DNA of 64,000 nucleotides from positions 1 to 64,000 of IMG/VR virus record IMGVR_UViG_3300032770_000005. One strand, 5' to 3'. Made by a program: the position numbers and the translations under genes. Below the pieces are notes generated by a model. It was not told the DNA's origin. It did no database searches and worked only from the letters and a program-made list of their open reading frames with translations. This DNA comes from a virus. Shown one piece after another: positions 8,790 through 60,206 of this stretch (positions are counted from its first letter, which is position 1; each line of letters opens with the position of its first letter).

Positions 8790-10550
8790 ATGGGCACGCG
8801 AGCGTACAAGTACGTCATCCGGGCTCCGGTCTCGAACCGAGAGCTGATCGTCGAGCAGATGAAGGCGGCCCACCACTACCGCAACAAGCTCGTCGAGATC
8901 GAACGCATGCGCCGTCAGGCGCAGAGGGCGCTGCTGTCGTCGGCCACGCCGGTCGCCGAGGCCGAAGCCTCGCTCGCTTCGATCCTCCACGACCTCGAAG
9001 AGGCCGTGAAGGAGATCAAGGCCTACAAGCAGAACAAGCGCGCCGGCAAGGTTCCCGAGGAACTGCGCACGAAGGTCAGCATGCTGCGCGTGCGTCGGAG
9101 GGACGCGCTCGTCGCTCATCGACAGGCGCGGCTCGCCAGCAAGGAGACGCAGAAGACGGAGGCCATGACGGTCGACGCGCTCGCGGCCGACCAGCGCAAG
9201 GCGGCGCGGGCCTCGTGCGGCGTCTACTGGGGCACGTACCTGCTGGTCGAGAGCGCCGACCAGCAAGCGCGCAAGGACACGCCCCTCTACGACGGCGGCG
9301 AGCCGAGCGATCCTCGGTTCACCCCCTGGACGGGCGAAGGTCAGATCGGCGTCCAGCTCCAGCACGGCATGAGCGTCGGCGAGCTGTACGAGCCCAACAC
9401 GCTCGTTCAGCTCATCCCGCACGAACGCATCACGGTGAAGGGCCCGGCCACGAGCAAGCGTGCCGCCCGTCGCCAGTACTGCCATCTGCGGATGCGCATC
9501 CAGAGCAACGAGGCGCGCGATCCGATCTGGGCCGAGTGGCCCATGGTCATGCACCGACCGCTGCCGCCCGACGGCCGCGTCAAGCGGGTCATCGTTCAAC
9601 GGCGGCGTGTCGGCGCACACGAGGAGTGGAGCGTCGTCTTCTCCTGCGAGGCCGACTACCGCCGCATCGACAACGCCCGTGACGGCGTCGTGGGGCTCGA
9701 CATCGGGTGGCGCATGCGGCCCGATGGTCAGATCCGAGTCGGCGCCTGGGCCGGCTCCGACGGGCAGCGGGGCGAGGTCCTGCTCCCGCCGCGGCTGATC
9801 ACGGCGATGAGCAAGCCCGACGAGCTGCGCTCGGTCCGCGACAAGGCGTTCGACCGCGCCCGGGCTGAGCTGAAGCAGTGGATTCAGCAGGCCCCCTACG
9901 TCCCCACCTGGATGCGCGAGCGAGCGCAGTGGGTCGATCGCTGGAAGTCGCCGGGGCGTCTCGCCGGCATCGTCAGGACCTGGGCCGGGCTGCGCTTCGA
10001 GGGTGACCGGGAGATCTACGACCGCATGGAGGCCTGGCGCTACCACGACTTCCACCTCTGGAACTGGGAGTGTCATCAGCGCGAGACGTCAAAGCGGTGG
10101 CTGAAAGACTTCTATCGCGTGGTCGCCCGCGACCTCGCCCGCCGCTACGAGCGGCTCGTGATCGAAGAGTTCGACCTGCGACCCCTGGCGCGTAGGCCCA
10201 TGGTCGAGGACCACGACCCTACGCACCGGCTCACCAACGCCACGCGCCACCTCGTGGCGCCCTCGATGCTGCGCGAGTGCGCGATGCAGGCGTTCTCCAC
10301 CGTCGAGCAGGTCGACGCGACCAACACGACCCGCGCCTGCCGTCACTGCGGCACGATCAACTCCTGGAACGCCGCCGAGGAGGTCACCCACCAGTGCGTC
10401 TCGTGCGGCGCCGTCTGGGACCAGGACGACAACGCGGCAGACAACATCCGCATGCGCTCGGGCACGGGCAAGGTCGTCGGAGGAGAGAGGCCGACAGAGC
10501 GAGGAGGAAGCTGGGCACGGCGCAAGGCTGCTGCCAAGAACGCTGCTTGA
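8790..10550 (+). CDS. cas12m: Cas12m-like (type V-M/V-U1) effector A, 586 aa
   Basis: N-terminal QMKAAHHYRNKLVEIER and GVYWGTY...WTGEGQIGVQLQ blocks; MHRPLP; RuvC-I GLDIGWR, RuvC-II LVIEEFD, zinc finger CRHC..CVSC, RuvC-III WDQDDNAA; 36-nt repeats start at its stop codon. Confidence 0.75.
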   Translation: MGTRAYKYVIRAPVSNRELIVEQMKAAHHYRNKLVEIERMRRQAQRALLSSATPVAEAEASLASILHDLEEAVKEIKAYKQNKRAGKVPEELRTKVSMLRVRRRDALVAHRQARLASKETQKTEAMTVDALAADQRKAARASCGVYWGTYLLVESADQQARKDTPLYDGGEPSDPRFTPWTGEGQIGVQLQHGMSVGELYEPNTLVQLIPHERITVKGPATSKRAARRQYCHLRMRIQSNEARDPIWAEWPMVMHRPLPPDGRVKRVIVQRRRVGAHEEWSVVFSCEADYRRIDNARDGVVGLDIGWRMRPDGQIRVGAWAGSDGQRGEVLLPPRLITAMSKPDELRSVRDKAFDRARAELKQWIQQAPYVPTWMRERAQWVDRWKSPGRLAGIVRTWAGLRFEGDREIYDRMEAWRYHDFHLWNWECHQRETSKRWLKDFYRVVARDLARRYERLVIEEFDLRPLARRPMVEDHDPTHRLTNATRHLVAPSMLRECAMQAFSTVEQVDATNTTRACRHCGTINSWNAAEEVTHQCVSCGAVWDQDDNAADNIRMRSGTGKVVGGERPTERGGSWARRKAAAKNAA

Positions 10551-11246
10551 TCAAAGAGGCTGCGCGGCGCCTTGAAGACCGCGAACACGGAGAAGGAAGG
10601 TGCCCCGATGAACGCGAAGAGTGAGACCGACACCTATGTCTACGTGGCCGGAGCGTCGGCGGAGATCGAGCGAGCCGAGCGGATGATCGCGATCGTGCGC
10701 AGCTTCGCGAAGATCGCGTACGACTGGACGGCGGCGATGCGCCGGCACGGCCCCGACTGGGCGCTGCCGATCGACGTGCTGCGAGGGGAGTTGCAGCGCA
10801 ACCTCGACGCCGTGGACTCGTGCGAGGCGCTGCTCGTGCTCGTGCCGGCGCAGCCGATCCAGACGCATGGCGCGTGGTGGGAGTGCAGCCGAGCGAAGGC
10901 GTGGAACGACCTGATCGCCGGTCCGAGCACAGCGCACGGCCCCGGCGACCCAGGCCAGCCACGCAAGTTCATCCTGGTCTCGCTACCGAACGACAAGACG
11001 CCCTGCCCGGTCTGGCTTCAGTGCTTCGCAGATCACGTGGAGGTTTCGGACGAACTGGCGGCCGCCTATCTGCGCGGCGTGGTGGAGCAACGAAGGGCCA
11101 TCGCCCGATAGCGCGAAGCGCGAGGTAGAGAGGCTGCGCGGCGCCTTGAAGACCGCGACTCATTGTTTGCGTCCTTGAAGCACGGGCCCGCGTGTGCGAA
11201 CGTTTGGGCACGCAGAGAGGCTGCGCGGCGCCTTGAAGACCGCGAC
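10551..11246 (+). CRISPR. mini-array of repeat family A: 3 repeats, one 51-nt spacer and one gene-sized interval
   Basis: Identical 30-nt core AGAGGCTGCGCGGCGCCTTGAAGACCGCGA at 10555-10584 and within the 36-mers 11124-11159 and 11211-11246. Confidence 0.75.
10608..11111 (+). CDS. nucleoside 2-deoxyribosyltransferase/nucleotide N-hydrolase-like protein, lying between CRISPR repeats
   Basis: YVAG...YDWT...LDAVDSCEALLVL...GAWWE pattern; AAGGAAGG RBS. Confidence 0.6.
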   Translation: MNAKSETDTYVYVAGASAEIERAERMIAIVRSFAKIAYDWTAAMRRHGPDWALPIDVLRGELQRNLDAVDSCEALLVLVPAQPIQTHGAWWECSRAKAWNDLIAGPSTAHGPGDPGQPRKFILVSLPNDKTPCPVWLQCFADHVEVSDELAAAYLRGVVEQRRAIAR

Positions 11247-11269
11247 GGTTGACGCCGATTGGCGAACGC

Positions 11270-11617
11270 ATGGCCATCTCGATCAAGCCCGGCCGCTGGC
11301 TCCTCGACTGCTCTCGTCGCAAGACCCGCGGCGCCATCGCGCTCGTCGGCTCCGGCGGCACGCTTCCGAAGCAGTTCGAGACGATGCTCTCGCGCATCGC
11401 TCGCGAAGAGGTCGGGCCCGCCTACCTCGGCAAGGAACGCGGCTCGATGCACGCCGCACTGCGCTCGATGCAGGGCAGCTACGTGCTCATTACGAGCGGC
11501 CGCATCATGTTCGTCAGCGACGCCAAGGGGCTCCGAGCAGCCATGCGCAGTGCAGGCTGGAGCGTGCCGCAGCACGCTCTAAGCACCGCGTTTCCGGCTC
11601 TGTTCGGTAGTGGTTGA
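11270..11617 (+). CDS. hypothetical protein
   Basis: ORF starting 23 nt after repeat 3. Confidence 0.6.
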   Translation: MAISIKPGRWLLDCSRRKTRGAIALVGSGGTLPKQFETMLSRIAREEVGPAYLGKERGSMHAALRSMQGSYVLITSGRIMFVSDAKGLRAAMRSAGWSVPQHALSTAFPALFGSG

Positions 11618-11642
11618 CTCAACTCACGCAACATACTACCGT
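11614..11642 (+). promoter_or_regulatory. sigma70-like promoter with two 9-bp units in the spacer
   Basis: TTGACT-17nt-TACCGT; TCAACTCAC GCAACATAC fill the spacer. Confidence 0.65.
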
Positions 11643-11686
11643 CCGAACCGCTCGCGATGCCAACTGCGAGCGGAGAGGACGAACGA

Positions 11687-12001
11687 GTGACAGCGCCGAA
11701 CGCAATGAAGCAAGCTGGTCTGCTCTCCGTCACGGAGGTCGCGCGCCAGCTCGGGCTTCATCGCACGACGGTCTGGCACAAGATCCGGCACGGGGAGATC
11801 GTAGCGACGCCGGTCACCGAGCGCTTCGTGGGCATCTCGCCGAAGGCGCTCGACGCCTATAAGGCCGAGTTCGTGGGCGTGTATCGTTCGTCGCGCAAGG
11901 GCAAGCGCGTCGCGAACGGCAGGAGCGTCAGTAGCACGAAGAAGTCGACGTCTGTCAGGAAGCCGCGTCGCACCAAGGCGCGGCAAAGGAGCGAGTCATG
12001 A
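11687..12001 (+). CDS. excisionase-like HTH DNA-binding protein with basic tail
   Basis: LLSVTEVARQLGLHRTTVWHKIRHGEI. Confidence 0.8.
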   Translation: MTAPNAMKQAGLLSVTEVARQLGLHRTTVWHKIRHGEIVATPVTERFVGISPKALDAYKAEFVGVYRSSRKGKRVANGRSVSSTKKSTSVRKPRRTKARQRSES

Positions 12002-13092
12002 GCGAGCAAGAGCAGAAGAACGAAGGCGTACCGGCCGGAGCGGAGATCGTACCCGTGCCCCCGAGGCGGGTCACCGATCAGCAGCTCGAAGACGCGGGCC
12101 TGATGATGCCCACCGTGGATCCGAGCGTGCTCCGCGCCGCATTCCAGAAGCGGATGGAGGTCCTGACGTCCATCCTCGATCCGAACCGCGACTTCGTCTA
12201 CACGATCCACTTCGTCGACCGCGAGGGCGGCGAGCAGCGCCGCTACGTCCAGCGGCTCGATCACGCGAGCGAACTCGCGACAGCGACCAAGGGCACGTAT
12301 ACCGCCCATCCGCGCAAGAGCGGCGTGCTGAAGCTCGCCCAGGCGCTCGGCATCGAGTGCCGGCTCATCGAGCGCATCGGCCTGCCGAACGACCCGAGGG
12401 CCGAGTTCTCGTCCGTGCGCTACATGGCGACCCACACCCGGACCGGCCGCAAGGAGGAGGGCATCGGGGCCTGCTATCTCTCGGAGAAGAAGGGCCTCCA
12501 GCGGCACGCGTGCATCTCCCTCGCGGACACGCGCGGCTACACCCGCGCCGTGCTTCGATGCGCGGGCTACGACAACGTGGGCGCCGAGGAGATGGAGTCC
12601 GTCGGCATCAGCACCGAGGAGGTGTCGATCGAGGCGCCTCTTCCCCCCGTCCGGCGCCGTCCGCCCGCGAGCCTCGGCGACGGCGAGCACTACGACGAGC
12701 CCGTCGCTGCGCCGGCGGCCGCTGCACCCGTTCCGGCGCACGCGCACAGGCCCGCGCACGCGTCGCCGCAGCAGGCGCCCGCGACGCAGCCGATGCGTCC
12801 GGCGACGCAGCCGGCTGCGCAGGCCAGCCAGACGCAGGCCCCGGCCAGCCCGGCGGCGGCTGCGCCGGCGCCAGATCCTGTGCCCATCTCGGAGACGTCC
12901 CCTGCCGTGGGCGGCCTCATCACCAACGCCCAGGCTGGCATCCTGTCCGATCTGCTGCTGCAAAAGCTCGGCAGCTTCGATCGCGCTCGTGGCTGGCTGA
13001 AGGAGCGCTTCGGCATCGAGCGTTCGATTCATCTGCCCGAGCACAAGCTGGGCGAGGCGACGAAGGCACTGGAAGCGATGGAGGTACCCTGA
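11998..13092 (+). CDS. putative single-strand annealing protein
   Basis: KSGVLKLA...GIGAC...SLADTRGYTRAV...AEEM, a Pro/Ala linker, and its position next to SSB and helicase genes. Confidence 0.55.
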   Translation: MSEQEQKNEGVPAGAEIVPVPPRRVTDQQLEDAGLMMPTVDPSVLRAAFQKRMEVLTSILDPNRDFVYTIHFVDREGGEQRRYVQRLDHASELATATKGTYTAHPRKSGVLKLAQALGIECRLIERIGLPNDPRAEFSSVRYMATHTRTGRKEEGIGACYLSEKKGLQRHACISLADTRGYTRAVLRCAGYDNVGAEEMESVGISTEEVSIEAPLPPVRRRPPASLGDGEHYDEPVAAPAAAAPVPAHAHRPAHASPQQAPATQPMRPATQPAAQASQTQAPASPAAAAPAPDPVPISETSPAVGGLITNAQAGILSDLLLQKLGSFDRARGWLKERFGIERSIHLPEHKLGEATKALEAMEVP

Positions 13093-13094
13093 CC

Positions 13095-13613: not shown

Positions 13614-13623
13614 GCAAAGCACG

Positions 13624-16402: not shown

Positions 16403-16415
16403 CGCGGGGTCGCCC

Positions 16416-18859: not shown

Positions 18860-19031
18860 TCACCTCGGTCAACATCGGCGAGCGCGTGCGTGTCGGCAGG
18901 TCATGGTGGACGGTGATCGCCACGTTCGCGGGTGGCCAGATCGAAGTCTGCTGCACCGTTCCCACGCGCACCGGCCCAGCAGTCGAGACGCGCCGCATCG
19001 GGGTGGTGGAAGTCAGAGAGAGGCGGACCTG

Positions 19032-19277
19032 ATGAGCGATACAGAGCGGGAGGATGACAACCATCGCTACATTCGTGAGGAGCTGAAGAGGCTGCGCGAA
19101 GCGGTGAAGACCAAGGGCCTCGCTCCTGGCGAGTGGGTTTGCGGCCTTCTCGCAGAGGCAATCGAACTCGCTGGCGCCATGGACGAGCTGGAGTGGTTGG
19201 ACGCGACGTATCGACTGATGTTCGGGGGCGTGACCAAGCTGCGGCAGCAGCTGAACGCCCGGAAGAGCCTGTCGTGA
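19032..19277 (+). CDS. hypothetical protein, tandem duplicate 1
   Basis: HRYIREELKRLR...LAGAMDELEWLDATYRLMF, paralogous to 19321-19557. Confidence 0.7.
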   Translation: MSDTEREDDNHRYIREELKRLREAVKTKGLAPGEWVCGLLAEAIELAGAMDELEWLDATYRLMFGGVTKLRQQLNARKSLS

Positions 19278-19320
19278 CGCGCCGCATCGGGGTGGCGGAA
19301 GTTCGTGAGAGGCGGACCTG

Positions 19321-19557
19321 ATGAGCGACCAGACGAAGCTGGAAGAGGACCATCGGTACGTTCGTGAGGAGCTGGAGAAGCTACGCGCAGCAATGAGGGC
19401 CAAGGACGTCGCTCCTAGGGAGTGGGCGTTCGGCCTTCTCGCGGAGGCCCTCGGGCTCGCCGGCGCCATGGATGACCTGGAGTGGCTGGATGAGACGTAT
19501 CGACTGATGTTCGAGCGTGTGCGGCAGAAGCTGAACGACCGAAAGAACATGTCGTGA
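19321..19557 (+). CDS. hypothetical protein, tandem duplicate 2
   Basis: HRYVREELEKLR...LAGAMDDLEWLDETYRLMF. Confidence 0.7.
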   Translation: MSDQTKLEEDHRYVREELEKLRAAMRAKDVAPREWAFGLLAEALGLAGAMDDLEWLDETYRLMFERVRQKLNDRKNMS

Positions 19558-20279: not shown

Positions 20280-20954
20280 GTGACCGACATGATTCCGACC
20301 GAACGCCTGGACGCTCTCGATGTTGCTATCAAGCGAGGCGAGGTGCTGCGTAGGCGATGGACCCGCAAGACGAAGGATGGGCGGGAACTGGCATGCTTGC
20401 TGGCCCACGTATCGCCGGCAGTCGCCTTACGGCAGGACGCGAGCGCGTGCCCGGCCGCGACGCTCGACCGGTGGTTCGCCTTCTTGCTGCTGTTCATCGA
20501 CGACCGATGCTCGCTACGACGACGGACCGGGTTCTGCGCCGCACAGCGGCGGTGCTGCGGCGCTGGCACCGGCTGCCCGCCGTAGTGCGCCGGCGACTCG
20601 ACTACGAGTGTCGCGCGATTGCAGTGCGTGAAGCACGGCGGCACGTAGCAGCAGGCGCGACGGGCCAGCTTGCTGCGATCGATCGCGTGCTCGCACTACT
20701 CGACCTGGCTGCGGACGGCCACAAGGTCAGCAGGCAGAGGTGGAAAGCGGCTGCCGCGGAGGCTGGGCGGGCGGCGCTAGCAGCGGACGGCGCGACGCTC
20801 GAAGCTGCGTGGGCGGCGCTAGCAGACGGCGCGACGCGCGAAGCTACGCGCATCGCAGCATTGGTAGCTGATCAGGCGGCGGTTCCGTGGACAGGGTAGT
20901 GGGTCAGTTTGAGTTTTAGCTGGCGCACGCGACGGTTCTGCCGACGATGCGCAC

Positions 20955-36857: not shown

Positions 36858-37898
36858 GGCGCGAGGCCAGTGCGGGGGCTTCGTGCCTGCGACTACTGCG
36901 CCGCATGCCGCGCTGTGGTCCCAGCCGCCGCCGAGCGAGCCAGTGCGGGGGCCTCATGCCCGCGACATGCCAGCGCAGTGGCTTGGTGCCTGCGACGCTT
37001 GTCTCCTCGGCCGTCGGTGCCGTCAGTCGCGAGGCCAGCGCAGGGGCCTGATGCCTGCGGCCGTGTTGCGAAGCCTGCGCAGAGCCGAGTGCCTGCGACT
37101 GGCGCGTGACGAGATCGGCTCTACCTTAGGCGGTAAGCCGCGAGGCCGGCGCGGGGGCTTGGTGCTCGCGACGTGCGGTCCGAGCACGCACCGGCAACGC
37201 CTGTGTTTGCAGGGCCAGCGCGGGGGCCGAGTGCCCGCGACCCCACTTCTGCGATCCTTCGAGGCCAGCGCGAGGGCATCGTGCTCGCGACCGCGGATCC
37301 GTGCTCGCGACCGCGGATCGCGGTGAGGATCAACGAGCCCGGCCGCAGGGGGCATCGTGCCGTCGCGAAGCCAGCGCGGGGGCCGAGTGCTCGCGACGAG
37401 GTCGTGGGGTGCCCGTGCTCGTGGTCATGAAGCCAGGCCGGCGCGAGGGCTTAGTGCTTGCGACGAGAACTGTGAGCACCACGTCGGCTCAGCAGAAGGC
37501 CAGCGCGGGGGCCGTGTGCCTGCGACGGCGAGCCGGGCGCGCACCGACAGTGGACCGTCATCCGTCGCGAGAGGCCAGCGCGGGGGCCGAGTGCCCGCGA
37601 TTGTCTCGTCGCGGTCATGTTGTTGCGACGACATCATCGTTGCAGGGCCAGCGCGGGGGCCTGATGCCTGCGACTGGGCCGTTGCAGCGCGGTGCGAGTG
37701 CCTGTGTCGCGAGGCCAGCGCGAGGGCTTCGTGCTCGCGACGCAGGGTTCGCCTCCAGAAGCGCGCGGCGCGTGCTCCTCCTCGTCGCGAGGCCAGCGCA
37801 GGGGCCTGGTGCCTGCGACTGGAGATCTGCCATTGTCGTTGCCGGCGCCGTCGATGAGGCCGGAAATCACGCCAGCGCGAGGGTCTCGTGCTCGCGAC
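36858..37898 (+). CRISPR. orphan array of repeat family B, about 16 heterogeneous repeats
   Basis: Repeat 3' ends at 36893, 36966, 36996, 37061, 37099, 37172, 37241, 37291, 37397, 37464, 37526, 37601, 37674, 37741, 37819 and 37898; core GCCAGCGC(G/A)(G/A)GGGCNNN(G/A)TGC(C/T)(C/T)GCGAC. Confidence 0.88.
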
Positions 37899-37956: not shown

Positions 37957-38727
37957 ATGACGACCCGCCGAGGCATGCTCTGGAAGACGCCGTGGAAGAG
38001 AGATCGCAACAAGGCGCCCCTGCCTCCCGGCGGCGAGATGGCCTTCTTCCAGAACTTCGACTCCGGCGCGAACAGTTCCGCGTACAAGAGCGTCGGCAAC
38101 ACGATGCTCGGGCAGTCGCTGCCGTTCTGGTTCGGCGCAGTGAGCGCGCAGCAGAACACGCTCACCAACTTCTTCGGCGCGGTCCCCGGCGCCGGCTTCG
38201 GCTTCTCAGCAGGGCTGCTCGGTGGCACGGCTGGCCTCGTCTCGGGCAATGCTGAGGCGGCTCCGAGCCTCGTCTCCAACGGCCAGCTCGCGGTCAGGCC
38301 TGCCGCCGGCACGATCGCGGTCGTCGCCATCCTGGCGATCGTCGAGCAGGCCGGCGCGGGCTACCGGCTCACGACGTACTTCTGTCGGCTCGGGCAGCCG
38401 ATCAAGCAGACCGTGACGCCCTACGCGCCGCCCGGCGCGACGCAGCTCGTTCTGTCCGCGAGCACCGGGCTGATCCACGGCGCAGCCGGCGGAGCCGGCG
38501 TGCCGACCGCCGCCCAGGTCCAGTCGTGGTTCCAGCAGCTGAAGCTGAACCGCGAGGTCGGGGAGATCCCCGGCCTCACGTCGCACCTCTACTCCGCTAC
38601 GAGCGTCTATCCGCTCGTGCCGGCCGTGCTACCGAACGGAGCGGGCGGCCAGAACATGGACTACACGGTGATCGCTGGCGCGCCGACACCGACCAACGTG
38701 CTGCTCGCCGTGTCGTTCCCCTGGTGA
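37957..38727 (+). CDS. hypothetical (possibly structural) protein between the two orphan arrays
   Basis: TTGGCG-17-TACGAT promoter at 37921-37949; Gly/Ala/Pro-rich ORF. Confidence 0.7.
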   Translation: MTTRRGMLWKTPWKRDRNKAPLPPGGEMAFFQNFDSGANSSAYKSVGNTMLGQSLPFWFGAVSAQQNTLTNFFGAVPGAGFGFSAGLLGGTAGLVSGNAEAAPSLVSNGQLAVRPAAGTIAVVAILAIVEQAGAGYRLTTYFCRLGQPIKQTVTPYAPPGATQLVLSASTGLIHGAAGGAGVPTAAQVQSWFQQLKLNREVGEIPGLTSHLYSATSVYPLVPAVLPNGAGGQNMDYTVIAGAPTPTNVLLAVSFPW

Positions 38728-38758
38728 ACGTGTCGGACACGTTGTAGGCTGCTCGTCC

Positions 38759-39205
38759 ATGAGCAACGACGCCTTCAACCGCGGCATCTTCAGCGAGCAG
38801 AAGGGCGTGCTCGACGACGCCTTCCAGAACGCGACGGGCGTCGAGCACGCGACCGGCGATCTCAAGGAGGGCATCAGAGAGAACGTCGAGATGGGCGGCG
38901 TGCGCCTCATGAGCGACTGCAACTACTGCGGGCTCCAGTGGCGCGGCATCGTGAAGTGGCCCGAGATCGCCGGCTTCTTCACCGGTCAGCAGGTGCCGGG
39001 CACCCAAGCGATCAGACCCGGCGTGGCCAGCGCCTTCGGTTGCAGAAAATGCAACAGCGTCAACAAGTTCCTGATGCCGTGGGCGGACATCAACCGGTAC
39101 GTGGCGATGGGCGTGGAGATGGGTGCGCTGCCGCGAGACATCTACAAGGTCCGCGAGCAGATCATGGCGCAGCGCGCCGCGCAGAGATCTGCACGCGGCA
39201 GATGA
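38759..39205 (+). CDS. hypothetical protein with two CxxC motifs
   Basis: CNYCG...CRKC; preceded by the palindrome AACGTGTCGGACACGTT. Confidence 0.7.
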   Translation: MSNDAFNRGIFSEQKGVLDDAFQNATGVEHATGDLKEGIRENVEMGGVRLMSDCNYCGLQWRGIVKWPEIAGFFTGQQVPGTQAIRPGVASAFGCRKCNSVNKFLMPWADINRYVAMGVEMGALPRDIYKVREQIMAQRAAQRSARGR

Positions 39206-40118
39206 CCGACATGCCTGCGCAGGGCCTCGTGCCTGCGACGCACAGCGCCGTGCATCGGCCTCAATCGCGAGGCCAGCGCGAGGGCCTCATGCTCGCGACG
39301 ACCCACGCGTGCTCTACAGGCAGGGGCCGAGGCCTGCGACCAAGAAAAGCGAGGCGCATCCGAAAGTCTGTCCGCATGCAGAAGTCTGTCCGCATGCAGA
39401 AGTCCGTCCGCAGATCGGCAGTCGCCAGGCCAGCGCGGGGGCTTCGTGCCTGCGACTTGCAGTGGGAGATCATGTCCGCCGTTGCATGCCAGCGCAGGGG
39501 CTACCTGCCTGCGACGCCCAGGCTCCGCGCGTGTTTGAGGCCAGCACGAGGGCCTCGTGCTCGTGACTCCCGTGCGGCCAGTTCTTGCTCGCTCGCGAAC
39601 CGTCCGCTTGACGACGGACGCCCCAAGGCCAGCGCGGGGGCCGAGTGCCTGCGACTTGCAGTGTGAGCAGTGTGAGATCAGATGGCGGCGCGCATGTAGA
39701 GAGCGTGGCGGCAAACACGGCCGGCGAGGCCGGCCCGTGACCGAGCGAGCGGCAGCGAACGGTAGCTCATTGCATCTTCTTCCGGGGACGATGGGTGGCC
39801 GCGCTGTCGTGGCTGCGACGGAGTTGCTGCTCCGTGGTAGTCCGGCGAGATCACGGGTCGGCCTCACCGACCGACTGCCGATCCTGCGACGCAGATCTGA
39901 GAACGACGCGCATCACGCCAGCGCGAGGGCCGCATGCTCGCGACAAGCGCTCGAACTCTACTAAGCCAGCGCAGGGGCCGCATGCCTGCGACGAGCACGC
40001 TCGCGATGACGCTCGCCGTCGCTCGGCTCGAAAGGCCATCGCGGGGCATCGTGCCCGCGACATGTGGACGGACGAGTTTCTTTTACAAGGCCAGCGCAGG
40101 GGCCCGTGTACCTGCGAC
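39205..40118 (+). CRISPR. orphan array of repeat family B, about 11 clear repeats plus eroded remnants
   Basis: Repeat 3' ends at 39239, 39299, 39340, 39456, 39515, 39567, 39655, 39944, 39992, 40061 and 40118. Confidence 0.82.
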
Positions 40119-47297: not shown

Positions 47298-47303
47298 GAC
47301 AGA

Positions 47304-47993
47304 GTGATCCCCACAGAGCGACTGGACGCGCTGGACCGGGCCATCGAGCGCGGGGAAGTGCTGCGCAACGACTGGGCCCGGGAACAGGATGGTCATCAGC
47401 TGGCGTGCCTGCTCGCACATCTTTCGCCAGAGGTGGCGGTGGAGAAGTCGGCGGACGCCTGCCCCGCCAAGACCCTCGACCCGTGGTTCGCGCACCTGTT
47501 GCCGTGGATCGATGACGCGTGCTCACTCGAACGACGCGACGAGTTCCTGCGTCGCACGGCGGCGGTCCTGCGGCGCTGGGACGCACTGTCAGCCGAGACG
47601 CGTTGCCGGCTCGACTACGAATGTCGCGCGATTGCGGTGCGAGAGTCGCGGCTACGTGTGTCCGCGAGCGAAGAGCAGGCGCTTGCGGCAGTCGACGGCA
47701 TGCTTGCGTTGCTAGACCGGGCGGCCGTGGGCGGTGAGGTCAGCGCGCAGGAGTGGTCGGCGGCGGCGGCGACGGCGCGGGCGGCGGCCGCACAGGAGTG
47801 GTCGGCGGCGGCGGCGGCGGCGGCCGCGCAAGTGCGGGCGGCGGCGGCGGGGGCGGCCGCGTGGGCGGCGCGGGCGGCACCGGCTTCGGCGCGGGCGGCA
47901 GCAGCGGCTTGGGCGCGGGCGGCGGCGTCCGATCGAATGATCGACCGCATGCTCACCGCCATGGAGCGCGAGTGCGCGAAGGTGACGCCATGA
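47304..47993 (+). CDS. 'MIPxERLDALD' family paralog 4
   Basis: Conserved family blocks with a poly-Ala core. Confidence 0.8.
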   Translation: MIPTERLDALDRAIERGEVLRNDWAREQDGHQLACLLAHLSPEVAVEKSADACPAKTLDPWFAHLLPWIDDACSLERRDEFLRRTAAVLRRWDALSAETRCRLDYECRAIAVRESRLRVSASEEQALAAVDGMLALLDRAAVGGEVSAQEWSAAAATARAAAAQEWSAAAAAAAAQVRAAAAGAAAWAARAAPASARAAAAAWARAAASDRMIDRMLTAMERECAKVTP

Positions 47994-48673
47994 TCCCTAC
48001 GGAACGGTTGGACGCGCTGGACCGGGCCATCGAGCGCGGGGAGGTGCTGCGCAACGACTGGGCTCGGGAGCAGGACGGTCGCCAGCTCGCGTGCCTGCTC
48101 GCGCATCTTTCGCCAGAGGTGGCGGTGGAGAAGTCGGCGGACGCCTGTCCGACCAAGACGCTCGACCCGTGGTTCGCGCATCTGCTGCCGTGGATCGACG
48201 ATGCGTGCTCGCTGGAGCGCCGCGACGAGTTCTTGCGTCGCACGGCGGCAGTGCTGCGGCGCTGGGACGCGCTGTCGGCAGAGACTCGGCGGCGTCTCGA
48301 CTACGAGTGCAGGGCGATCGCGGTGCGAGAGGCGCGGCTGCACGTGTCTGCGAGCGAAGAGCAGGCGCTTGCGGCGATCGACAGCATGTTCGCGTTGCTC
48401 GACCGCGCGATCGCGGGCGGTGAGGTCAGCAAGCAGGAGTGGTCGGCGGCGGCGGCGTCGGCGCGGGCGGTGGTCGCACAGGAGTGGTCGGCGCCGGCGG
48501 CGGGGGCGGCAGCGGCCGCGCAAGTGCGGGCGGCGGCGGCGCGTGCGGCACAGCTGGCGACTGAGGCGGTGTTGGCGCCCGAGGTGGCGGCTCAGGCGAT
48601 GGCGTCCGATCGCATGATCGACCAGATGCTCTCCGCCATGGAGCGCGAGTGCGCGAAGGCGGCGGTGACATGA
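47990..48673 (+). CDS. 'MIPxERLDALD' family paralog 5
   Basis: Near-identical to paralog 4 over the N-terminal two-thirds. Confidence 0.8.
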   Translation: MIPTERLDALDRAIERGEVLRNDWAREQDGRQLACLLAHLSPEVAVEKSADACPTKTLDPWFAHLLPWIDDACSLERRDEFLRRTAAVLRRWDALSAETRRRLDYECRAIAVREARLHVSASEEQALAAIDSMFALLDRAIAGGEVSKQEWSAAAASARAVVAQEWSAPAAGAAAAAQVRAAAARAAQLATEAVLAPEVAAQAMASDRMIDQMLSAMERECAKAAVT

Positions 48674-52235: not shown

Positions 52236-52489
52236 TGGCGATGTCTCTCGTCGAGCGCGTTCGCAGGTTCAAGAACACGACCGGCACGTGCTCGTGGGGC
52301 GGCGCGCACGCAGGGCTCCATCCGGATGCGTGCGTCTGCAATCGAGAACCGGATGCGTATCCGGGGACGCCGCACACGCACTACGATGAGCCGCCGCACG
52401 AGTGTGCGCGCTGCGGGTGCACGGCGTACCAGCCGTGGCTCACGCTCGACTTCGTCATCCCGGGTCTGACCGTGGAGCCTACGACATGA
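52235..52489 (+). CDS. small Cys/His-rich protein
   Basis: TGATG coupling. Confidence 0.55.
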   Translation: MAMSLVERVRRFKNTTGTCSWGGAHAGLHPDACVCNREPDAYPGTPHTHYDEPPHECARCGCTAYQPWLTLDFVIPGLTVEPTT

Positions 52490-53265
52490 TTCCGCTCGAA
52501 CGCCTCGATGCCCTTGATGCCGCGATCGAGCGCGGGGAAGTGCTGCGTGGTGAGTGGACTTGCGAGGAGGACGGGCGCCAGCTGGCGTGTCTGCTCGCGC
52601 ATGTCTCGCCTGAGGTGGCGACGGCGAAGTCGGTGTCCGCCTGCCCCGCCAAAACGCTCGACCCGTGGTTCGCGCATCTGCTGCTGTACATCGACGATGA
52701 GTGCTCGCTCGAACGTCGCGACGAGTTCCTGCGACGCACGGCAGCAGTGCTACGGCAGTGGCACCGGCTATCCACGGAGACGCGCCGGCGGCTCGACTAC
52801 GAATGCAGAGCGGTTGCGGTCCGTGAGGTGAGGCCACACGTGCCGCTGAGCGAGGCGCAGATGATTGTGGCGATCGACAGCGCCCTCTTGCTGATTGCCA
52901 GAGCATGCGCAGGCGAGGTACTCAGCGAGCAGGAAGGGGAGGCGGTGCGCTGTTCGTTGTTCGCCGTAGACGAGGCGATGCAGTTGGCAGCGACGGCGGC
53001 GGTCCGGTCGGTGGCAGCTAGCGCGTTGCCGTGGGCAGAGCGAGCGGTGTGGTCGTCGTCGTCGACGGTGGATCCCGCGGCAGCTGCGAATGCTGCGCGA
53101 GCGGCAACGCGAGCGGTGGTGGCATTCGCGTTCGATGTGCTGGAGCCGGCAGGCTCGGCGGCGGCGGTCGCGGCGTGGACTGCGTCCGCAGAGGCGTCCG
53201 CAGATCGAATGATCAACCAGATGCTCTCCGCCATGGAGCGGGAGTGCGCGAAGGTGGCGGCGTGA
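52486..53265 (+). CDS. 'MIPxERLDALD' family paralog 6
   Basis: Conserved family blocks. Confidence 0.8.
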   Translation: MIPLERLDALDAAIERGEVLRGEWTCEEDGRQLACLLAHVSPEVATAKSVSACPAKTLDPWFAHLLLYIDDECSLERRDEFLRRTAAVLRQWHRLSTETRRRLDYECRAVAVREVRPHVPLSEAQMIVAIDSALLLIARACAGEVLSEQEGEAVRCSLFAVDEAMQLAATAAVRSVAASALPWAERAVWSSSSTVDPAAAANAARAATRAVVAFAFDVLEPAGSAAAVAAWTASAEASADRMINQMLSAMERECAKVAA

Positions 53266-53582
53266 TCTCCGTGGTCGACGTCGCAACGGAGAAGGAGTTC
53301 CTCGACCGCGCGACGGCCGCCGGCACTACGGTCCACGTTCTTCGGACCACCGCGGTTGCTCCTGTGCCGCTCGGAGGCGGGACAGTGCTCCTGCGTTCTG
53401 CCATCGCGCTCCAGTACTCGTTCGAGACCCATTCCGAGAACGGTGATACGCGGTGGGTGTATCGCGAGCGCTGCGTCGCGGATGAGCATGGCATCGTGGA
53501 CCTCTCGAACGTTTTGCTCACGCGGATCGCGGACGCAGGCGTTCCTACGGTCGTGTTCACGCAGCGCAGCGGGTCGCTATGA
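53262..53582 (+). CDS. hypothetical protein
   Basis: GTGA/ATGA coupling between two paralogs. Confidence 0.6.
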   Translation: MISVVDVATEKEFLDRATAAGTTVHVLRTTAVAPVPLGGGTVLLRSAIALQYSFETHSENGDTRWVYRERCVADEHGIVDLSNVLLTRIADAGVPTVVFTQRSGSL

Positions 53583-54385
53583 TTCCGGTCGAACGCCTCG
53601 ACGCCCTTGATGCCGCGATCGAGCGCGATGAGGTGCCGCTTGCATGGAAGAAAGAGCAGGGCGGACGGGTACTCTTGTCCTTCCTCGCTCACCTTTCTCC
53701 GGTGTTTGCGGCGCAACCGTCTTGGGGGCTCCTGACGAGCCGACCCGGCGACTCGTTCTACTACGGCTTGGTCGAGGGGACGCTCGACCCGTGGCTTGCT
53801 GAGCTACTTGAGTGGATCACGCGTACCGGCTCGCCTGAGCGGCGCGACCGCGTTCTGCGTCGCACGGCGGCAGTGCTGCGGCGCTGGGACGCGCTGTCGG
53901 CAGAGACGCGACGCCAGCTCGACTACGAGTGCAGGGCGATCGTGGTGCGCGAGGCTAGACAGCACGTACCGGAGAGTGAAGAGCGCTCGCTCGCGGCGAT
54001 CGACAACGTGCTCGCGTTGCTCGATCGCGCGATCGCTGGTGGCGAGGTCGGCGAGCGGGAGTGGTCGGCGGTGGAGGCGAGCGGGATTGCAGAGGCGCAG
54101 GCATTGAGCGCACGAGGGGGGAGCGTTCGCGCGCGAGGAGGGGACATTCATGACATTCGCGTAGCGTGGCAGGCTACACAGGCCGCATACGTTGCGTGCG
54201 AGCGGTTGCCAAGGGCCGCCAAGTACGCAGTGTATCGTGCAGTAGATGCGGCGCCGTTGACACTGGTACCGCGGCCGCCTGACGGGACACATTGGTACTT
54301 TTATGCACAATGTGTAGTTGCCGACCGGATCATAGACCAGATGCTCACCGCCATGGAGCGCGAATGCGCGAAGGTGACGACATGA
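53579..54385 (+). CDS. 'MIPxERLDALD' family paralog 7 (most divergent)
   Basis: Conserved blocks with two divergent, less GC-rich inserts. Confidence 0.8.
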   Translation: MIPVERLDALDAAIERDEVPLAWKKEQGGRVLLSFLAHLSPVFAAQPSWGLLTSRPGDSFYYGLVEGTLDPWLAELLEWITRTGSPERRDRVLRRTAAVLRRWDALSAETRRQLDYECRAIVVREARQHVPESEERSLAAIDNVLALLDRAIAGGEVGEREWSAVEASGIAEAQALSARGGSVRARGGDIHDIRVAWQATQAAYVACERLPRAAKYAVYRAVDAAPLTLVPRPPDGTHWYFYAQCVVADRIIDQMLTAMERECAKVTT

Positions 54386-55813: not shown

Positions 55814-56577
55814 CGCCGGAACGCAAGGCCGAGTGCTACCGCATCGTCAGCGAGCGGTTCGCCGCGGGCGAGTACGACTACGTGAGCCGAGATCTGCTCG
55901 ACGCCCTCGACGAGGCGCTCGCGGTGCAGGTGAGCATCGCGGAGGCCATGGGCCGCGAACCTTCGGACGGCAGCGACCTCGTGGAAGCCGTGCGACGGCT
56001 GGTGCGAGAGCGAGGCGAAGCGCTCGAAGACGCCACGCTGTGGCGGCAAGAGCAGGCGGAGATCGACGCAGATCAGAGCGCGGTTGACGACTGGCTCGCC
56101 GAGAACGCGCGCATCCGCGCCATGCCGGAGGCCGAGCGAACCGCCGCCGTCGCCGATGCGGTTGCCCGCGGCGTGTTCGAGGACGAGTCAGATCCGTCCC
56201 GGTACGTCGACATCGAGAACCACACGAAGCAGATCGCGGCGGCGATGCCTGCGTTTGTTCGCGCGCTCACGGCCGAGAAGGAGCAGCGTCGTCGGGCGGA
56301 GAAGGCCGAGCGCGAGCGCGATGAGGCGCGGCAAGCGGCCGAGACGTGGGAGCGTAACGAGACGCAGGCTCTCGTCGACGGGGCACGGATGCAGGAGCGC
56401 GCAGAGCGAGCCGAAGCCGCACTGCGCGACACGTGCGTCCGGGTCGCGGACGCGGTGCGGTTCGCCGTGATCCTGCGAGGGGCCGCGCCGCCCTCCGACG
56501 AGGACCTTGCGGCGATCGTGGACAACGTGCTCCGAGGTCAGCGGGGGACGACGACGACGCGTGGAGGTGGTCAGTGA
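55810..56577 (+). CDS. hypothetical coiled-coil protein
   Basis: GTGA coupling; RAEKAERERDEAR heptads. Confidence 0.7.
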   Translation: MTPERKAECYRIVSERFAAGEYDYVSRDLLDALDEALAVQVSIAEAMGREPSDGSDLVEAVRRLVRERGEALEDATLWRQEQAEIDADQSAVDDWLAENARIRAMPEAERTAAVADAVARGVFEDESDPSRYVDIENHTKQIAAAMPAFVRALTAEKEQRRRAEKAERERDEARQAAETWERNETQALVDGARMQERAERAEAALRDTCVRVADAVRFAVILRGAAPPSDEDLAAIVDNVLRGQRGTTTTRGGGQ

Positions 56578-56921
56578 CCTCGGAAGAACGTGAAGCCAGC
56601 ATTCGAGACATGTGCACGCTCGTGCTCGCGGGCGAGCGCGTGCCAGCGGCGTGGGGAGACGTGGCGTTCTTGCTCACTCTGCTCGACGCCGCCCGGAAGC
56701 AGTCGGTCGTCACCGAGCAAGGCCCGGCGGGCGCGTGGAGCGAGACCGGAACCGTCATCGAGCGCGCCCATCAGGCGGGCAAGGTAGGCGACTTCGCGGC
56801 ACTCGTGAGGCTGTGCCTGGACCGCGGGACGGATGCGCTCTTCTACGCAGTGTCCGAGGGCGGCAGCGTGTTCTGCTTCGCCGAGAGCGACATCGTCGAC
56901 CTGCTGGCGGCGGATGACTGA
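56574..56921 (+). CDS. hypothetical protein
   Basis: GGAGG RBS and coupling. Confidence 0.6.
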   Translation: MTSEEREASIRDMCTLVLAGERVPAAWGDVAFLLTLLDAARKQSVVTEQGPAGAWSETGTVIERAHQAGKVGDFAALVRLCLDRGTDALFYAVSEGGSVFCFAESDIVDLLAADD

Positions 56922-57352
56922 TGAACGCGCCCGACATGACGTCCCTCTCGCGCCGAGATCGCGCCGCCATCTTGCTGGCGTTGACGTGGATTCGCGTCAC
57001 GCCTGGTCGCGGTGGCGGTCCGCTGCTGGCGCGGGAGCAGGCGTGCGAAGCGCTGCGGATGGGAGGCAAGGGGGCGAAGGCGATCGCTGAGGCCGTGGCC
57101 AGCGCGAACTCGGAACTGGCGTCCGAGATGGCACGCAACGGCGACTTGTCATCGGAGGCACGCTATCTGGACGTGCTCGCCACGAACCGGCGGCTGGTCC
57201 GCGCCCGCCTCGCGCTCTTCCTGCGGACCGTCGTGCGCGTTGACGACGACGATTACGGATGTTGGGACGGAGACCGCGGTGGATGGTTGCCGCGGCCGTA
57301 TCATGCTCTCTGGGAATCCGCACCACCGCATCGAAAGAAGGTCAGCCAATGA
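56921..57352 (+). CDS. hypothetical protein translationally coupled to Cas12m-like effector B
   Basis: TGATG start; ATGA overlap with 57349. Confidence 0.6.
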   Translation: MNAPDMTSLSRRDRAAILLALTWIRVTPGRGGGPLLAREQACEALRMGGKGAKAIAEAVASANSELASEMARNGDLSSEARYLDVLATNRRLVRARLALFLRTVVRVDDDDYGCWDGDRGGWLPRPYHALWESAPPHRKKVSQ

Positions 57353-59214
57353 GCGTCAAGGTCTATCGCTATGGTTTGGGCGCACCGGTCGAGAACGAAG
57401 CGTTGGTGCGGGCGCAGCTGCGTGCGGCGCATCACTACCGCAACGCGCTCGTCGAGGTCGAGCGGTGGCGCCGCGCCGAGCACCGACGACTGCTCGGTGC
57501 GCATCCGGGCGTCGGGCCGGCGGAGGCCGCGGTGACGCTCGCCCATGCGGTGCTCGACGAGGCGTTGACCGCCGTCAAGCGCGTGAAGGGGGCGAGTCGC
57601 AGCGGTGCGGTGCCGTCGGAGTTGCGCGCTGCGCTCCATGTGGCGCGCTCCCGCAAGGCCGATGCCGTGCGAGCGTTCCGAGAGGCGCGAGCGGCGCTGC
57701 GCGGAGACGAAGCGCTGAACGCCGAGCGGGCGCGCGTCGACGAGACGGCTGCTCAGCGGCGGAAGGCCCTCCGAGCGTCCTGCGGCGTCTACTGGGGCAC
57801 GTACCTCGGGATCGAAGCGGCGGATGAGCAGTCGCGCAAGCAGCCGCTCTACGACGGCGCGGAGCCGCTCGACCCGCGGTTCATGCCGTGGACGGGCGAA
57901 GGACGTGTCGGCGTTCAGTTCCAGGGCGGCCTCGCGGTCGACCAGGTGGTGGACGACACGCGCATGAGGATCGAGGACGCGCAGCCGGTGCGCGTCTCAA
58001 AGCTCGGGCGCGTGCTGCCTCAGCGTGATCCGTCGAGCAAGCGATCCGCCCTCCGCCGCTACGCGACGCTCGCGCTGCGCGTCGGGTCCGACGACGATCG
58101 TGGGCCCGTGTGGGCTCGCTGGCCGCTCGTGCTGCACCGGCCGCTCCCCGAGGGCGGCGTCCTCAAGTGGGCACACGTCTCGCTCCGGCGGATCGGTCCG
58201 CGCGAGGAGTGGTCGCTGCTTTGCACCGTCGAGAGCGAGGACCGTCGCCCGCTGCCGCCGCTCGAAGCCGGAGCGGTCGCGGTCGATCTCGGGTGGCGGC
58301 AGATGGACGACGGCTCCGTGCGCGTCGCCTACTGGCTGGGCCAGGACGGGCAGGAGGGCGAACTGCGGCTCTCGCCGCGCGACCTCTCCGGGCTCTCGAA
58401 GGCGGACGAGGTGCGGGCTGTCCGCGACCGCGCCTTCGATGCCGCGCGCCGCGAGCTGCGTGAGTGGCTCGCCACGAACCCTGGTCGACCGTGGCTGAGG
58501 ACGAGGTGCGAGTGGATCGACCGGTGGAAGGCGCCGGGCCGGCTCGCCGCGACGGTCGTGCAGTGGCGCGCGGACGGCTTCCGCTTCGAGGGCGACAAGG
58601 AGATCTTCGTGAAGCTCGAAGCGTGGCGCAAGCAGGACAAGCACCTCTGGTGCTGGGAGACGTCGCAGCGCACGGGCGCGCTGCGAGCGAGGAAGGATCT
58701 GTACCGCCGCTTCGCGTGTGACCTGGCGCGTCGCTACCGCACGCTCGTGATCGAAGACTTCGACATGCGCGAGGTGTCGCGCCGACCTGCCGCGGACGAA
58801 GCGGCCGGCAACGCTGCCGCGCGGTCGATGAGGCAGCGGGCAGCGCCGAGCGAGGCTCGTCTCGCGCTCGTGCACGCGTTCCGCGACGTGTCGAAGCAGG
58901 ACCCCGCCGACACGACCCACGACTGCCACTCGTGCGGGTCGCGCGAGCAGTTCGATCAGGCGGCCGAGCTGGTCCATCGCTGCGGAGCGTGCGGCACCGA
59001 GTGGGACCAGGACCGGAACGCGGCTATCAACCTGATGCGTCGCGCGAGCGATGCCGGTGCTCTCGGAGAAGGCGGGGTCGCTCGCGAGCCGCGAGAGGCC
59101 AACGATTTCGAGGCGAAGCCCGCGGGCCGATGGGCGCGAGCGAAGGCGAAGAAGGCCGCTCGCATCGCGCAACAGGCGACCGCTCGCGAAGCGGCGCCCA
59201 GTGACGCGGAATGA
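57349..59214 (+). CDS. cas12m: Cas12m-like (type V-M/V-U1) effector B, 621 aa
   Basis: QLRAAHHYRNALVEVER, GVYWGTY, WTGEGRVGVQFQ, LHRPLP, RuvC-I AVDLGWR, RuvC-II LVIEDFD, CHSC..CGAC, RuvC-III WDQDRNAA; the array starts after a 19-nt gap. Confidence 0.82.
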   Translation: MSVKVYRYGLGAPVENEALVRAQLRAAHHYRNALVEVERWRRAEHRRLLGAHPGVGPAEAAVTLAHAVLDEALTAVKRVKGASRSGAVPSELRAALHVARSRKADAVRAFREARAALRGDEALNAERARVDETAAQRRKALRASCGVYWGTYLGIEAADEQSRKQPLYDGAEPLDPRFMPWTGEGRVGVQFQGGLAVDQVVDDTRMRIEDAQPVRVSKLGRVLPQRDPSSKRSALRRYATLALRVGSDDDRGPVWARWPLVLHRPLPEGGVLKWAHVSLRRIGPREEWSLLCTVESEDRRPLPPLEAGAVAVDLGWRQMDDGSVRVAYWLGQDGQEGELRLSPRDLSGLSKADEVRAVRDRAFDAARRELREWLATNPGRPWLRTRCEWIDRWKAPGRLAATVVQWRADGFRFEGDKEIFVKLEAWRKQDKHLWCWETSQRTGALRARKDLYRRFACDLARRYRTLVIEDFDMREVSRRPAADEAAGNAAARSMRQRAAPSEARLALVHAFRDVSKQDPADTTHDCHSCGSREQFDQAAELVHRCGACGTEWDQDRNAAINLMRRASDAGALGEGGVAREPREANDFEAKPAGRWARAKAKKAARIAQQATAREAAPSDAE

Positions 59215-59233
59215 TGGCGGATGCGAGCGGTCA

Positions 59234-60206
59234 GTTGCAGGGCCAGCGCGGGGGCCGAGTGCCTGCGACGCGTCCGCGAGCCCAACGACGCGATCCGCCT
59301 GCGCTGGCGTTGCAGGGCCAGCGCGGGGGCCGAGTGCCTGCGACGGGCGATCTCCGCGGCGTTCCGTCGCCGCTAAATCAGCGGGTTGCAGGGCCAGCGC
59401 GGGGGCCGAGTGCCTGCGACACGCCTGCGGACCTTCGAGTTCGGCTGCATGTCGCGAAGTTGCAGGGCCAGCGCGGGGGCCGAGTGCCTGCGACGTTGAG
59501 CAGATTGAAGGTGTTCACCCGCTTCGTCGCGGTTGCAGGGCCAGCGCGGGGGCCGAGTGCCTGCGACGTGGAGGCGGCGAAGACGAGCCGCCGGGGAATC
59601 TTTAGTTTGCAGGGCCAGCGCAGGGGCCTGGTGCTTGCGACTTCTGTCCGTGCTGCGGGCACAAGCCTGCGGAGTAGAGGTGCGAGGCCGGCGCGGGGGC
59701 CTGGTGCTCGCGACCCTCGGTAGCAATCGACCTTCGCGAGCGCGAGCGCCCAGTTGCATGGCCAGCGCGGGGGCCGAGTGCCCGCGACACCTCGGTGATG
59801 TAGCGCTTAGCGCCCGCGTCGCAGGGCCAGCGCGGGGGCCGAGTACCTGCGACCTCTCCAACTGCTCTTGCTCGGTCACGGTGATCTCCTGTTGCAGGGC
59901 CAGCGCGGGGGCCGTGTGCCTGCGACAAACCCCGCGTCGATGAGATCGTACTCGCCCACTCCGGTCGCGAAGCCAGCGCAGGGGCTTTGTGCCTGCGACG
60001 CCAGGCTCGCGAAGGTTGGGCGTGTCGATAGGCCGGCGCGGGGGCCTTGTGCCTGCGACCGTAGGTAGTCCTTCGTGACGCCCAGCATCTGGGCGACGTT
60101 GCAGGGCCAGCGCGAGGGCTTGGTGCTCGCGACAGCCGCTTCACGATCTCGAAGACCCTCTTCTCGTTGTGTGGCGAGGCCTGCGCAGGGGCCTTGTGCC
60201 TGCGAC
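59234..60206 (+). CRISPR. CRISPR array of repeat family B: 14 repeats, 13 spacers (24-40 nt)
   Basis: GTTGCAGGGCCAGCGCGGGGGCCGAGTGCCTGCGAC exact at 59234, 59309, 59385, 59459 and 59532; variants at 59605, 59679, 59753, 59818, 59891, 59964, 60024, 60098 and 60171. Confidence 0.97.

Follow-up and report, generated by a model that had tools for sequence, protein, structure and literature searches.

The window analyzed here, a 64,000-nt stretch of DNA, is the first 64 kb of the IMG/VR virus record IMGVR_UViG_3300032770_000005, a single contig of 152,857 bp that is listed as linear and has a CheckV completeness estimate of 100%. It carries two genes for proteins of about 600 amino acids (aa) with RuvC motifs, which we refer to as effectors A and B, each followed directly by its own variant of a 36-nt repeat (families A and B). 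A preliminary description of this DNA interpreted these features as a dual Cas12m-like CRISPR system, with four dispersed arrays and no adaptation genes in the window. Both effector open reading frames (ORFs) are present at the positions it gave, and by every feature testable here from sequence the system is a member of type V-M (Cas12m). The features of the window that belong to the system, or lie between its parts, are listed below, with the G+C fractions of the three codon positions given as GC1/2/3.

8790-10550, plus strand: effector A, Cas12m paralog, 586 aa; matches PDB chain 23vw_A over residues 10-560 (E = 1.1e-66)
10550-10585, plus strand: family A unit 1; begins at the effector A stop codon and ends in ..GCGAA
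10608-11111, plus strand: gene resembling nucleoside 2-deoxyribosyltransferases (NDT-like), between A units 1 and 2; GC1/2/3 of 0.66/0.49/0.87; ribosome-binding site and ATG 22 nt past unit 1
11124-11246, plus strand: family A units 2 and 3 (11124-11159 and 11211-11246) with a 51-nt spacer; the ATG of the next gene (11270) is 23 nt on
36858-37898, plus strand: family B cluster of 16 degenerate units, irregularly spaced at 30-111 nt; starts 19 nt past the upstream plus-strand gene
37975-39205, plus strand: two protein-coding genes (250 and 148 aa) between B clusters; GC3 of 0.90 in both
39205-40118, plus strand: 10 degenerate family B units in one cluster, which runs from the stop codon of the upstream gene to a point 20 nt short of a convergent gene
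57349-59214, plus strand: effector B, Cas12m paralog, 621 aa; matches 23vw_A over residues 37-598 of the 651-aa reading (E = 1.2e-67)
59234-60206, plus strand: family B array of 14 units; begins 19 nt past the effector B stop codon

Effector Proteins

In a phmmer comparison with PDB chains, the match of both effectors to 23vw_A, deposited as "CRISPR-associated DNA-binding protein Cas12m," covered nearly their whole length (E values of about 1e-66 and 1e-67), in agreement with the earlier designation of the two proteins as Cas12m-like. They also matched Cas12m2 (8hhl), GoCas12m (8pm4) and 23vu with E values of 1e-22 to 1e-27 (2.6e-27 for effector B against 8hhl), while TnpB structures gave only 1e-3 or worse. 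An identity as IS200/IS605 TnpB was rejected, as the NCBIfam guided_TnpB model scored 33 and 38 bits against a cut-off of 100 and the IS200_TnpB model 21-23 bits against a cut-off of 425, with the match confined to the C-terminal 120 residues. Both effectors have a C-terminal RuvC with a zinc-ribbon TNB domain, the latter matched by Pfam PF07282 (Cas12f1-like_TNB) with E values of 2-4e-09, at residues 493-553 in effector A, and CxxC...CxxC and RuvC motifs are seen in both translations. Over 576 residues the two share 45% identity. Effector B could also be read from an upstream ATG at 57259, giving 651 aa, but its homologs align only from the start at 57349.

The RuvC triad of effector B is D313/E469/D555; in an alignment of 37 family members the last of these residues is invariant and the other two show conservation of at least 90%. 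Effector A keeps all invariant columns of this alignment, including the RuvC D/E/D. The characterized Mm and Go Cas12m proteins have an H-D-D triad and the Pm protein has N-D-D. An intact D-E-D triad is no proof of nuclease activity, since all four D-E-D Cas12m variants tested by Bigelyte et al. showed binding that depended on a protospacer-adjacent motif (PAM) without cleavage (PMC11013384).

Both effector genes have members of a family of seven paralogous genes upstream of them (window 7725-8788, 20288-20900, 47303-48673 and 52485-54385), which encode proteins of ~140-300 aa and have Gly/Ala-rich GGC tracts. Two members are directly upstream of effector A and four are 3-10 kb upstream of effector B; Pfam and PHROG searches returned no match to any of them.

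Repeat Families and their Distribution

Ten near-exact copies (at most three mismatches) of the family B repeat occur in the window, versus none in shuffled sequence. A profile made from the family B core and run over both strands identified 88 family B units genome-wide. Forty of these are within the window (16 + 10 + 14), in keeping with the roughly 40 guides originally attributed to this family, and 48 are outside it in nine clusters, at 72.6, 79.9, 85.5, 91.5, 95.9, 100.5, 103.8, 104.4, and 105.8-107.2 kb. Family A has exactly five units, three after effector A and two degenerate minus-strand ones at 100,441-100,590, on either side of a B unit in one operon gap. The record therefore has ~93 units in 14 clusters. 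The preliminary description was right that each effector is directly followed by its own repeat variant (the arrays begin 0-19 nt past the genes) and that further B arrays lie 19-22 kb from effector B (the clusters at 36858-37898 and 39205-40118). Its count of four dispersed arrays needs revision, as the system is genome-wide, and its view of family A as one or two guides must be given up in light of the five A units, two of which are interleaved with a B unit at 100.4-100.6 kb.

Most units are in arrays with unique spacers and the 72-76-nt period typical of CRISPR, and there are solitary units at 85539 and 100490. Spacers are unique between clusters, save that two units at 91.6-91.7 kb nearly duplicate a pair at 106.2-106.3 kb. 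The array after effector B opens with five identical repeats separated by 37-40-nt spacers and has degenerate repeats distally. The largest distant array (20 repeats, 105.8-107.2 kb) has a similar arrangement, its effector-proximal half being uniform with 37-40-nt spacers and its distal repeats degenerate. Uniform proximal repeats with degenerate distal ones are what is usually seen when an array has in the past grown at its leader end. A 190-nt stretch upstream of the 20-repeat array (107,210-107,400, minus strand) has 83% identity to the final 170 nt of effector B together with the 19-nt leader that follows, with the reading frame shifted in the copy. At least this array is thus a segmental copy in which the effector gene's 3' end was carried along. 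No anti-repeat that would point to a tracrRNA turned up near either effector when both strands were scanned with the profile, and Rfam had no match in the window.

At 96132-96232 of the record, beyond the window, two units of opposite strand (one plus, one minus) are oriented toward each other across 29 nt, in the gap between two convergent genes. In a read-through RNA these two units would form a duplex of ~30 bp.

Layout of the Clusters Among Genes

All 14 clusters are free of genes among the 200 called in the record with a codon-position model. ORFs that overlap the arrays have flat GC1/2/3 values of ~0.7 each, versus 0.68/0.51/0.87 in the real genes of the record, and are considered non-coding for this reason. 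Twelve of the 14 clusters are co-oriented with their 5' neighbor gene. For eleven clusters or units the start is at most ~35 nt after the stop codon of a co-oriented gene, and those after effector A (10550) and after the genes ending at 39205, 91480, and 104366 start at the stop codon itself. A separate leader would not fit into such gaps, so the units are most simply taken to be transcribed by read-through. At the other end, the last unit of several clusters is 22-76 nt ahead of the start of the next gene, so that the leader of that gene takes the guide position.

Four places have real genes between repeat clusters: 10608-11111 (the NDT-like gene), 37975-39205 (two genes), 104082-104366 (one gene), and 104.6-105.8 kb (two genes). 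The resemblance of the 10608-11111 product to nucleoside 2-deoxyribosyltransferases is a lead only, derived from an Atlas feature score of 0.91 and TM scores of 0.67-0.77 to Nuc_deoxyrib_tr clusters; it had no match in Pfam or PHROGs. PHROGs likewise had no match to the products of the 37975-39205 genes, the second of which (148 aa) has a homolog in the lineage relative L004.

The gap from handle to handle (the handle being the 3' 28 nt of the repeat, see below) is at least 17 nt in 72 of 74 units. Such a gap is sufficient for a Cas12m guide, based on the finding that a guide of 17 nt is optimal for PmCas12m (bioRxiv 10.64898/2026.03.26.714355).

A Conserved Pseudoknot Handle

Only the 3' 28 nt of the 36-nt repeat are conserved, and the first 8 nt are often unrecognizable in distant units. 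The conserved part is a pseudoknot of two interleaved helices, in which positions 9-11 pair with 20-22 and positions 14-19 with 29-34. Across 79 distinct copies, 98.4% of the cells in these helices are paired, and when the partners were slid as a control, pairing fell to 34-60%. Changes on both sides of a pair were found in 39 cells, versus 7.0 in shuffles, and none of 500 shuffles reached 39, with the reservation that the repeat copies are related rather than independent and such compensatory counts can overstate selection. Decay of the 5' 8 nt next to a fold that has been preserved would be difficult to account for unless the RNA is under selection. The helix positions are those reported for the PmCas12m CRISPR RNA (crRNA), in which -28..-26 pair with -17..-15 and -23..-20 with -6..-3 (bioRxiv 10.64898/2026.03.26.714355). 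A rival terminal stem, joining the repeat end to end, that was proposed by single-sequence folding was rejected, as it was 64% paired with no covariation; folding of single repeats was not distinctive (z of -0.5 to -1.4).

The A and B handles differ at 12 of 28 positions, including a compensatory swap in helix 1 (C10:G21 to G10:C21). From these sequence differences it is plausible that the two effector/handle pairs could be orthogonal.

History of the Two Effectors

In a tree of 113 proteins effectors A and B are sisters (support of 0.98), with a longer branch for A (1.02) than for B (0.58). By identity, effector B is nevertheless closer to the effectors of the relatives (50-51%) than to effector A (46%). 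The sister signal stems from the REC-containing two thirds of the protein (support of 0.97), and the WED/C-terminal part of A was unplaced; because this partition was picked after the data had been seen, a possible mosaic nature of A is a lead only. These data would fit a scenario in which the two genes arose by an old duplication, after which A may have changed fast, also in the parts that hold the handle in solved Cas12m structures.

Adaptation Genes and Other Cas12m-Carrying Elements

No match to Cas1, Cas2, or Cas4 was found across the whole 152,857-bp record, so the lack of cas1, cas2, and cas4 originally noted for the window extends to the rest of the contig. Cas1 was also found in none of 50 other Cas12m-carrying virus records, and a missing adaptation module is the rule for type V-M (PMC11013384). 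Its absence here is therefore unremarkable, as it is the norm both for the type and for viral Cas12m loci. By comparison, exactly one full-length Cas12m copy is present in each of the 50 other records, which makes the second effector an unusual feature of this virus.

The effector family has 172 proteins at an E value of 1e-10 or lower, with identities of 40-50%. A search of IMG/VR with the family alignment identified 55 contigs that encode a relative, nearly all with an array directly after the gene. In two complete, unrelated viruses (124.6 and 192 kb, each with five shared proteins) there is one tidy array of 18-19 uniform repeats and there are no scattered units. IMGVR_UViG_3300031965_000004, on the other hand, has 18 units of the same repeat family at six sites, and scattered degenerate units are present on two metagenome contigs (L116 and L124) as well. 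The lineage relative L003 has at least 30 degenerate A-like repeats, spaced at 50-177 nt, after its effector. True relatives of the record are a JGI contig of 220 kb and an ENA scaffold of 166 kb with synteny around effector B, and the effector-array cassette of the relatives is at differing positions between shared genes. For these two lineage relatives (L001 and L004) the view of repeat dispersal covered +/-10 kb. A 2026 preprint has described one Cas12m with an 8-spacer array in a tailed myxophage as the first in a phage (bioRxiv 10.64898/2026.09.14.751636).

In L003, public gene calls place two minus-strand "genes" (283 and 325 aa; 8144-9959) over the 2.3-kb degenerate repeat array, and these calls are probably spurious.

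Matches to the repeats in metagenome-assembled genomes (MAGs) of Planctomycetota are either single units or on a 70%-GC contig that is probably mis-binned. The latter, L082 (43.8 kb, 70.6% G+C), was binned to a "Brocadiaceae" MAG and has a Cas12m relative 44% identical to effector B together with a family B array. Anammox genomes have ~40-45% G+C, and since the value for L082 is far from this we consider it probably a mis-binned mobile element. An example of a single unit is the family B handle at 1847-1874 (minus strand) of a 4.7-kb contig of a Rhodopirellula sp. MAG (L084), which lies ~50 nt away from what looks like a tRNA gene's 3' end (GGTTCAAGTCC); this site could be the edge of a tRNA-integrated element.

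Searches for Guide Targets

Within the virus's own genome no spacer had a match of at least 90% over 25 nt, and the best match (34 nt, 91%) was to a degenerate repeat-like stretch. The array regions matched none of 50,697 GenBank phage records, three leader-proximal 24-nt spacer seeds had no match in IMG/VR, and all spacers failed to match 1.5 Mb of related loci. A comparison of array B1 with 401 Planctomycetota genomes gave weak GC-rich matches only. Spacer 1 of array B1 did match two orthologous NTP_transf_5 genes at 29 of 32 positions; we treated these matches as chance because similar ones elsewhere fall in unrelated ORFs. The family A guides had no match of 12 nt or longer in any promoter region of the genome, and shorter matches were indistinguishable from chance.

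Interpretation

We interpret the locus as an adaptation-less type V-M (Cas12m) system, carried by a large environmental virus and consisting of two paralogous effector/handle pairs and many handle-plus-guide units, and estimate the probability of this interpretation at about 0.7. The working unit would be the 28-nt pseudoknot handle, which is the 3' part of the 36-nt repeat, with a guide of at least 17 nt. Intergenic units would most likely be transcribed by read-through of the viral operons rather than from leaders of their own, and the effectors are expected to cut the handles out of these transcripts. The resulting crRNAs, if they act as is expected for the Cas12m family, would guide PAM-dependent DNA binding and silencing, with competing mobile elements or the host as the likeliest targets. 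The arrays may once have been built by adaptation machinery acting in trans, as suggested by the uniform 37-40-nt spacers at their effector-proximal ends. They would then have spread by segmental duplication, an origin that is evident in part from the copy with the effector gene 3' end, after which genes presumably came to sit between repeats and the repeats diverged with their fold kept. As a hypothesis, effector B could serve in defense and effector A as a dedicated regulator, the split of roles put forward in the preliminary description.

Several observations weigh against this interpretation. A protospacer was found for no guide in the virus's own genome, the GenBank phages, the IMG/VR seed search, the 401 Planctomycetota genomes, or the related loci, which leaves guide function putative. 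Many units are degenerate, two leave less than 17 nt for a guide, and the cluster at 79946-80108 runs opposite to both neighboring genes. The covariation counts, as noted above, come from related copies. In addition, no HK97 capsid protein, terminase, or portal protein was recognized anywhere in the record, and none of these was matched among the ~40 largest proteins in Pfam or PHROGs, so the status of the record as a virus rests on its IMG/VR classification.

A different use of the scattered handles is conceivable, in which their main role is in the virus's own transcripts rather than in guiding against foreign DNA. Handles in polycistronic RNA would be bound or cut by Cas12m, which would so punctuate operons and release or regulate the genes that come after a handle or have handles on both sides, with A and B handles being read by different paralogs. 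The layout described above is consistent with this, in particular the eleven clusters or units that start within ~35 nt of a co-oriented stop codon, the last units 22-76 nt before a gene whose leader is in the guide position, the real genes between clusters in four places (such as the NDT-like gene and those at 37975-39205 and 104082-104366), the solitary units at 85539 and 100490, and the A and B units interleaved in one operon gap. Nevertheless, most units are in arrays of 72-76-nt period with unique spacers and the unrelated complete Cas12m viruses have only their one tidy array, so we think this use unlikely as the principal one; it is also compatible with guide use. Taken to its furthest extent it becomes a genome-wide RNA code of two Cas12m proteins and two handle variants, whereby handles at operon ends and ahead of genes would make Cas12m cut and hold the virus's transcripts, repeat-flanked genes would be freed as handle-headed mRNAs controlled by the effectors, and each operon would also deliver its own guides at its own time of infection. 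We regard this as a speculative and, on balance, doubtful proposal.

Alternatively, only the effector-adjacent arrays may work, the other clusters being decaying relics of array duplication. The degeneracy and irregular spacing (30-177 nt) of the distant repeats, the pseudogenized effector fragment beside the largest distant array, which implies duplication and then decay, and the lack of identified targets are all as expected for relics. What makes this improbable to us is the retention of pairing at 98.4% and of double-sided changes well over those in shuffles while the non-handle 5' 8 nt decayed freely, together with the strictly intergenic position of the clusters, their orientation with transcription, and the occurrence of the same pattern in L003 and IMGVR_UViG_3300031965_000004. 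We consider it very improbable that the scattered units are RNA decoys, similar to RNA anti-CRISPRs, that soak up the Cas12m of a host or competing virus. Viral solitary repeat units are known to act in this way (PMC10651486) and the same repeat family is on many environmental contigs, but this virus encodes matching effectors directly beside the same repeats, most of its units have a full-length spacer, and no host with such a system was identified. The presence of cognate effectors directly beside the same repeat families also led us to reject a place for the units in the RNA anti-CRISPR class, whose members mimic a system that is not self-encoded.

Comparison With Known Systems

The adaptation-less viral system that we favor has its closest counterparts in type V-M (MmCas12m2, GoCas12m, MsCas12m, and PmCas12m; PMC10442227, PMC11013384, bioRxiv 10.64898/2026.03.26.714355), with which it shares an effector of ~600 aa with full-length homology, a 36-nt repeat with two stems at the positions of the solved crRNA handle, an array directly downstream of the gene, and the absence of adaptation genes; D-E-D variants are within the described family. 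It differs from them in having two diverged paralogs in one genome, each with a handle variant, and ~93 units in 14 intergenic clusters instead of one array, as well as in its highly degenerate repeats, the protein-coding genes between repeats, and its being virus-borne. MvCas12m of myxophage MV-1 (bioRxiv 10.64898/2026.09.14.751636) is likewise virus-encoded; its D-E-D triad is intact, an array is adjacent to it, cas1, cas2, and cas4 are missing, and targets were found for none of its spacers. MV-1, however, has one effector and one 8-spacer array, versus two effectors and genome-wide units here, and is a recognizable tailed phage with an HK97 capsid protein, terminase, and portal, whereas no structural genes were recognized here.

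Solitary repeat units and RNA anti-CRISPRs (PMC10651486) and crRNA-like regulatory mini-arrays (bioRxiv 10.1101/2023.03.03.530964) are similar in that lone or paired, often degenerate repeats are situated off the main array on a mobile element. Unlike those, the units described here have a matching effector encoded by the same virus and are mostly in multi-unit clusters with full-length unique spacers, and no partial guide match to cas promoters was found. The Cas12j (CasPhi) systems of huge phages likewise lack adaptation genes and pair their arrays with a type V effector that is compact and self-processing, but Cas12j is a different Cas12 family and its systems cut DNA. To our knowledge, neither handles that are dispersed and degenerate nor duplicated effectors have been described for Cas12j systems. 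The distinctive properties of this system are its second, diverged effector/handle pair and its ~93 fold-preserving units over 14 intergenic sites with genes in between.

Base editing and epigenome editing already make use of Cas12m, a compact, naturally non-cutting DNA binder. Two diverged effectors that occur naturally in one genome, each with a handle of its own, are a candidate for two orthogonal channels, and ~90 naturally varied, fold-keeping handles constitute a mutational map of what a handle tolerates. The locus also provides a view of array evolution without adaptation genes, through repeat drift with the fold kept, duplication, scatter, and genes in between, and it makes testable the idea that a viral Cas12m acts on its own transcripts in addition to foreign DNA.

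Other Features of the Record

The record has a G+C content of 65-72% along its whole length. Pfam and PHROG matches among ~40 large proteins include helicases, an archaeo-eukaryotic primase (AEP), MoxR/VWA proteins, an exonuclease, thymidylate synthase, and glycosyltransferases.

The top coding signal of the genome belongs to a gene beyond the window, at 118112-119050 (minus strand; neighbors at 117370-118071 and 119247-120053), for a protein of 312 aa. It has more than 200 homologs (58-68% identity) on contigs of 100-260 kb, none of which is annotated, and these homologs mark a widespread lineage. An AlphaFold2 model of the protein (predicted local distance difference test score, pLDDT, of 66) shows a beta sandwich after a long N-terminal helix, and the only matches of the sandwich were weak ones to single-jelly-roll capsid proteins (polyomavirus VP1 with E ~1e-2; SPV1 capsid with Z of 6.3 over 131 residues).

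Two further repeat structures were noted in the window. At the extreme start of the contig (1-323) there are 13.5 copies of a 24-nt tandem repeat, which may represent a terminal structure or else a coding repeat truncated where the contig ends. At 18982-19513 a 289-nt tandem duplication (82% identity) has given rise to two adjacent genes of ~80 aa.

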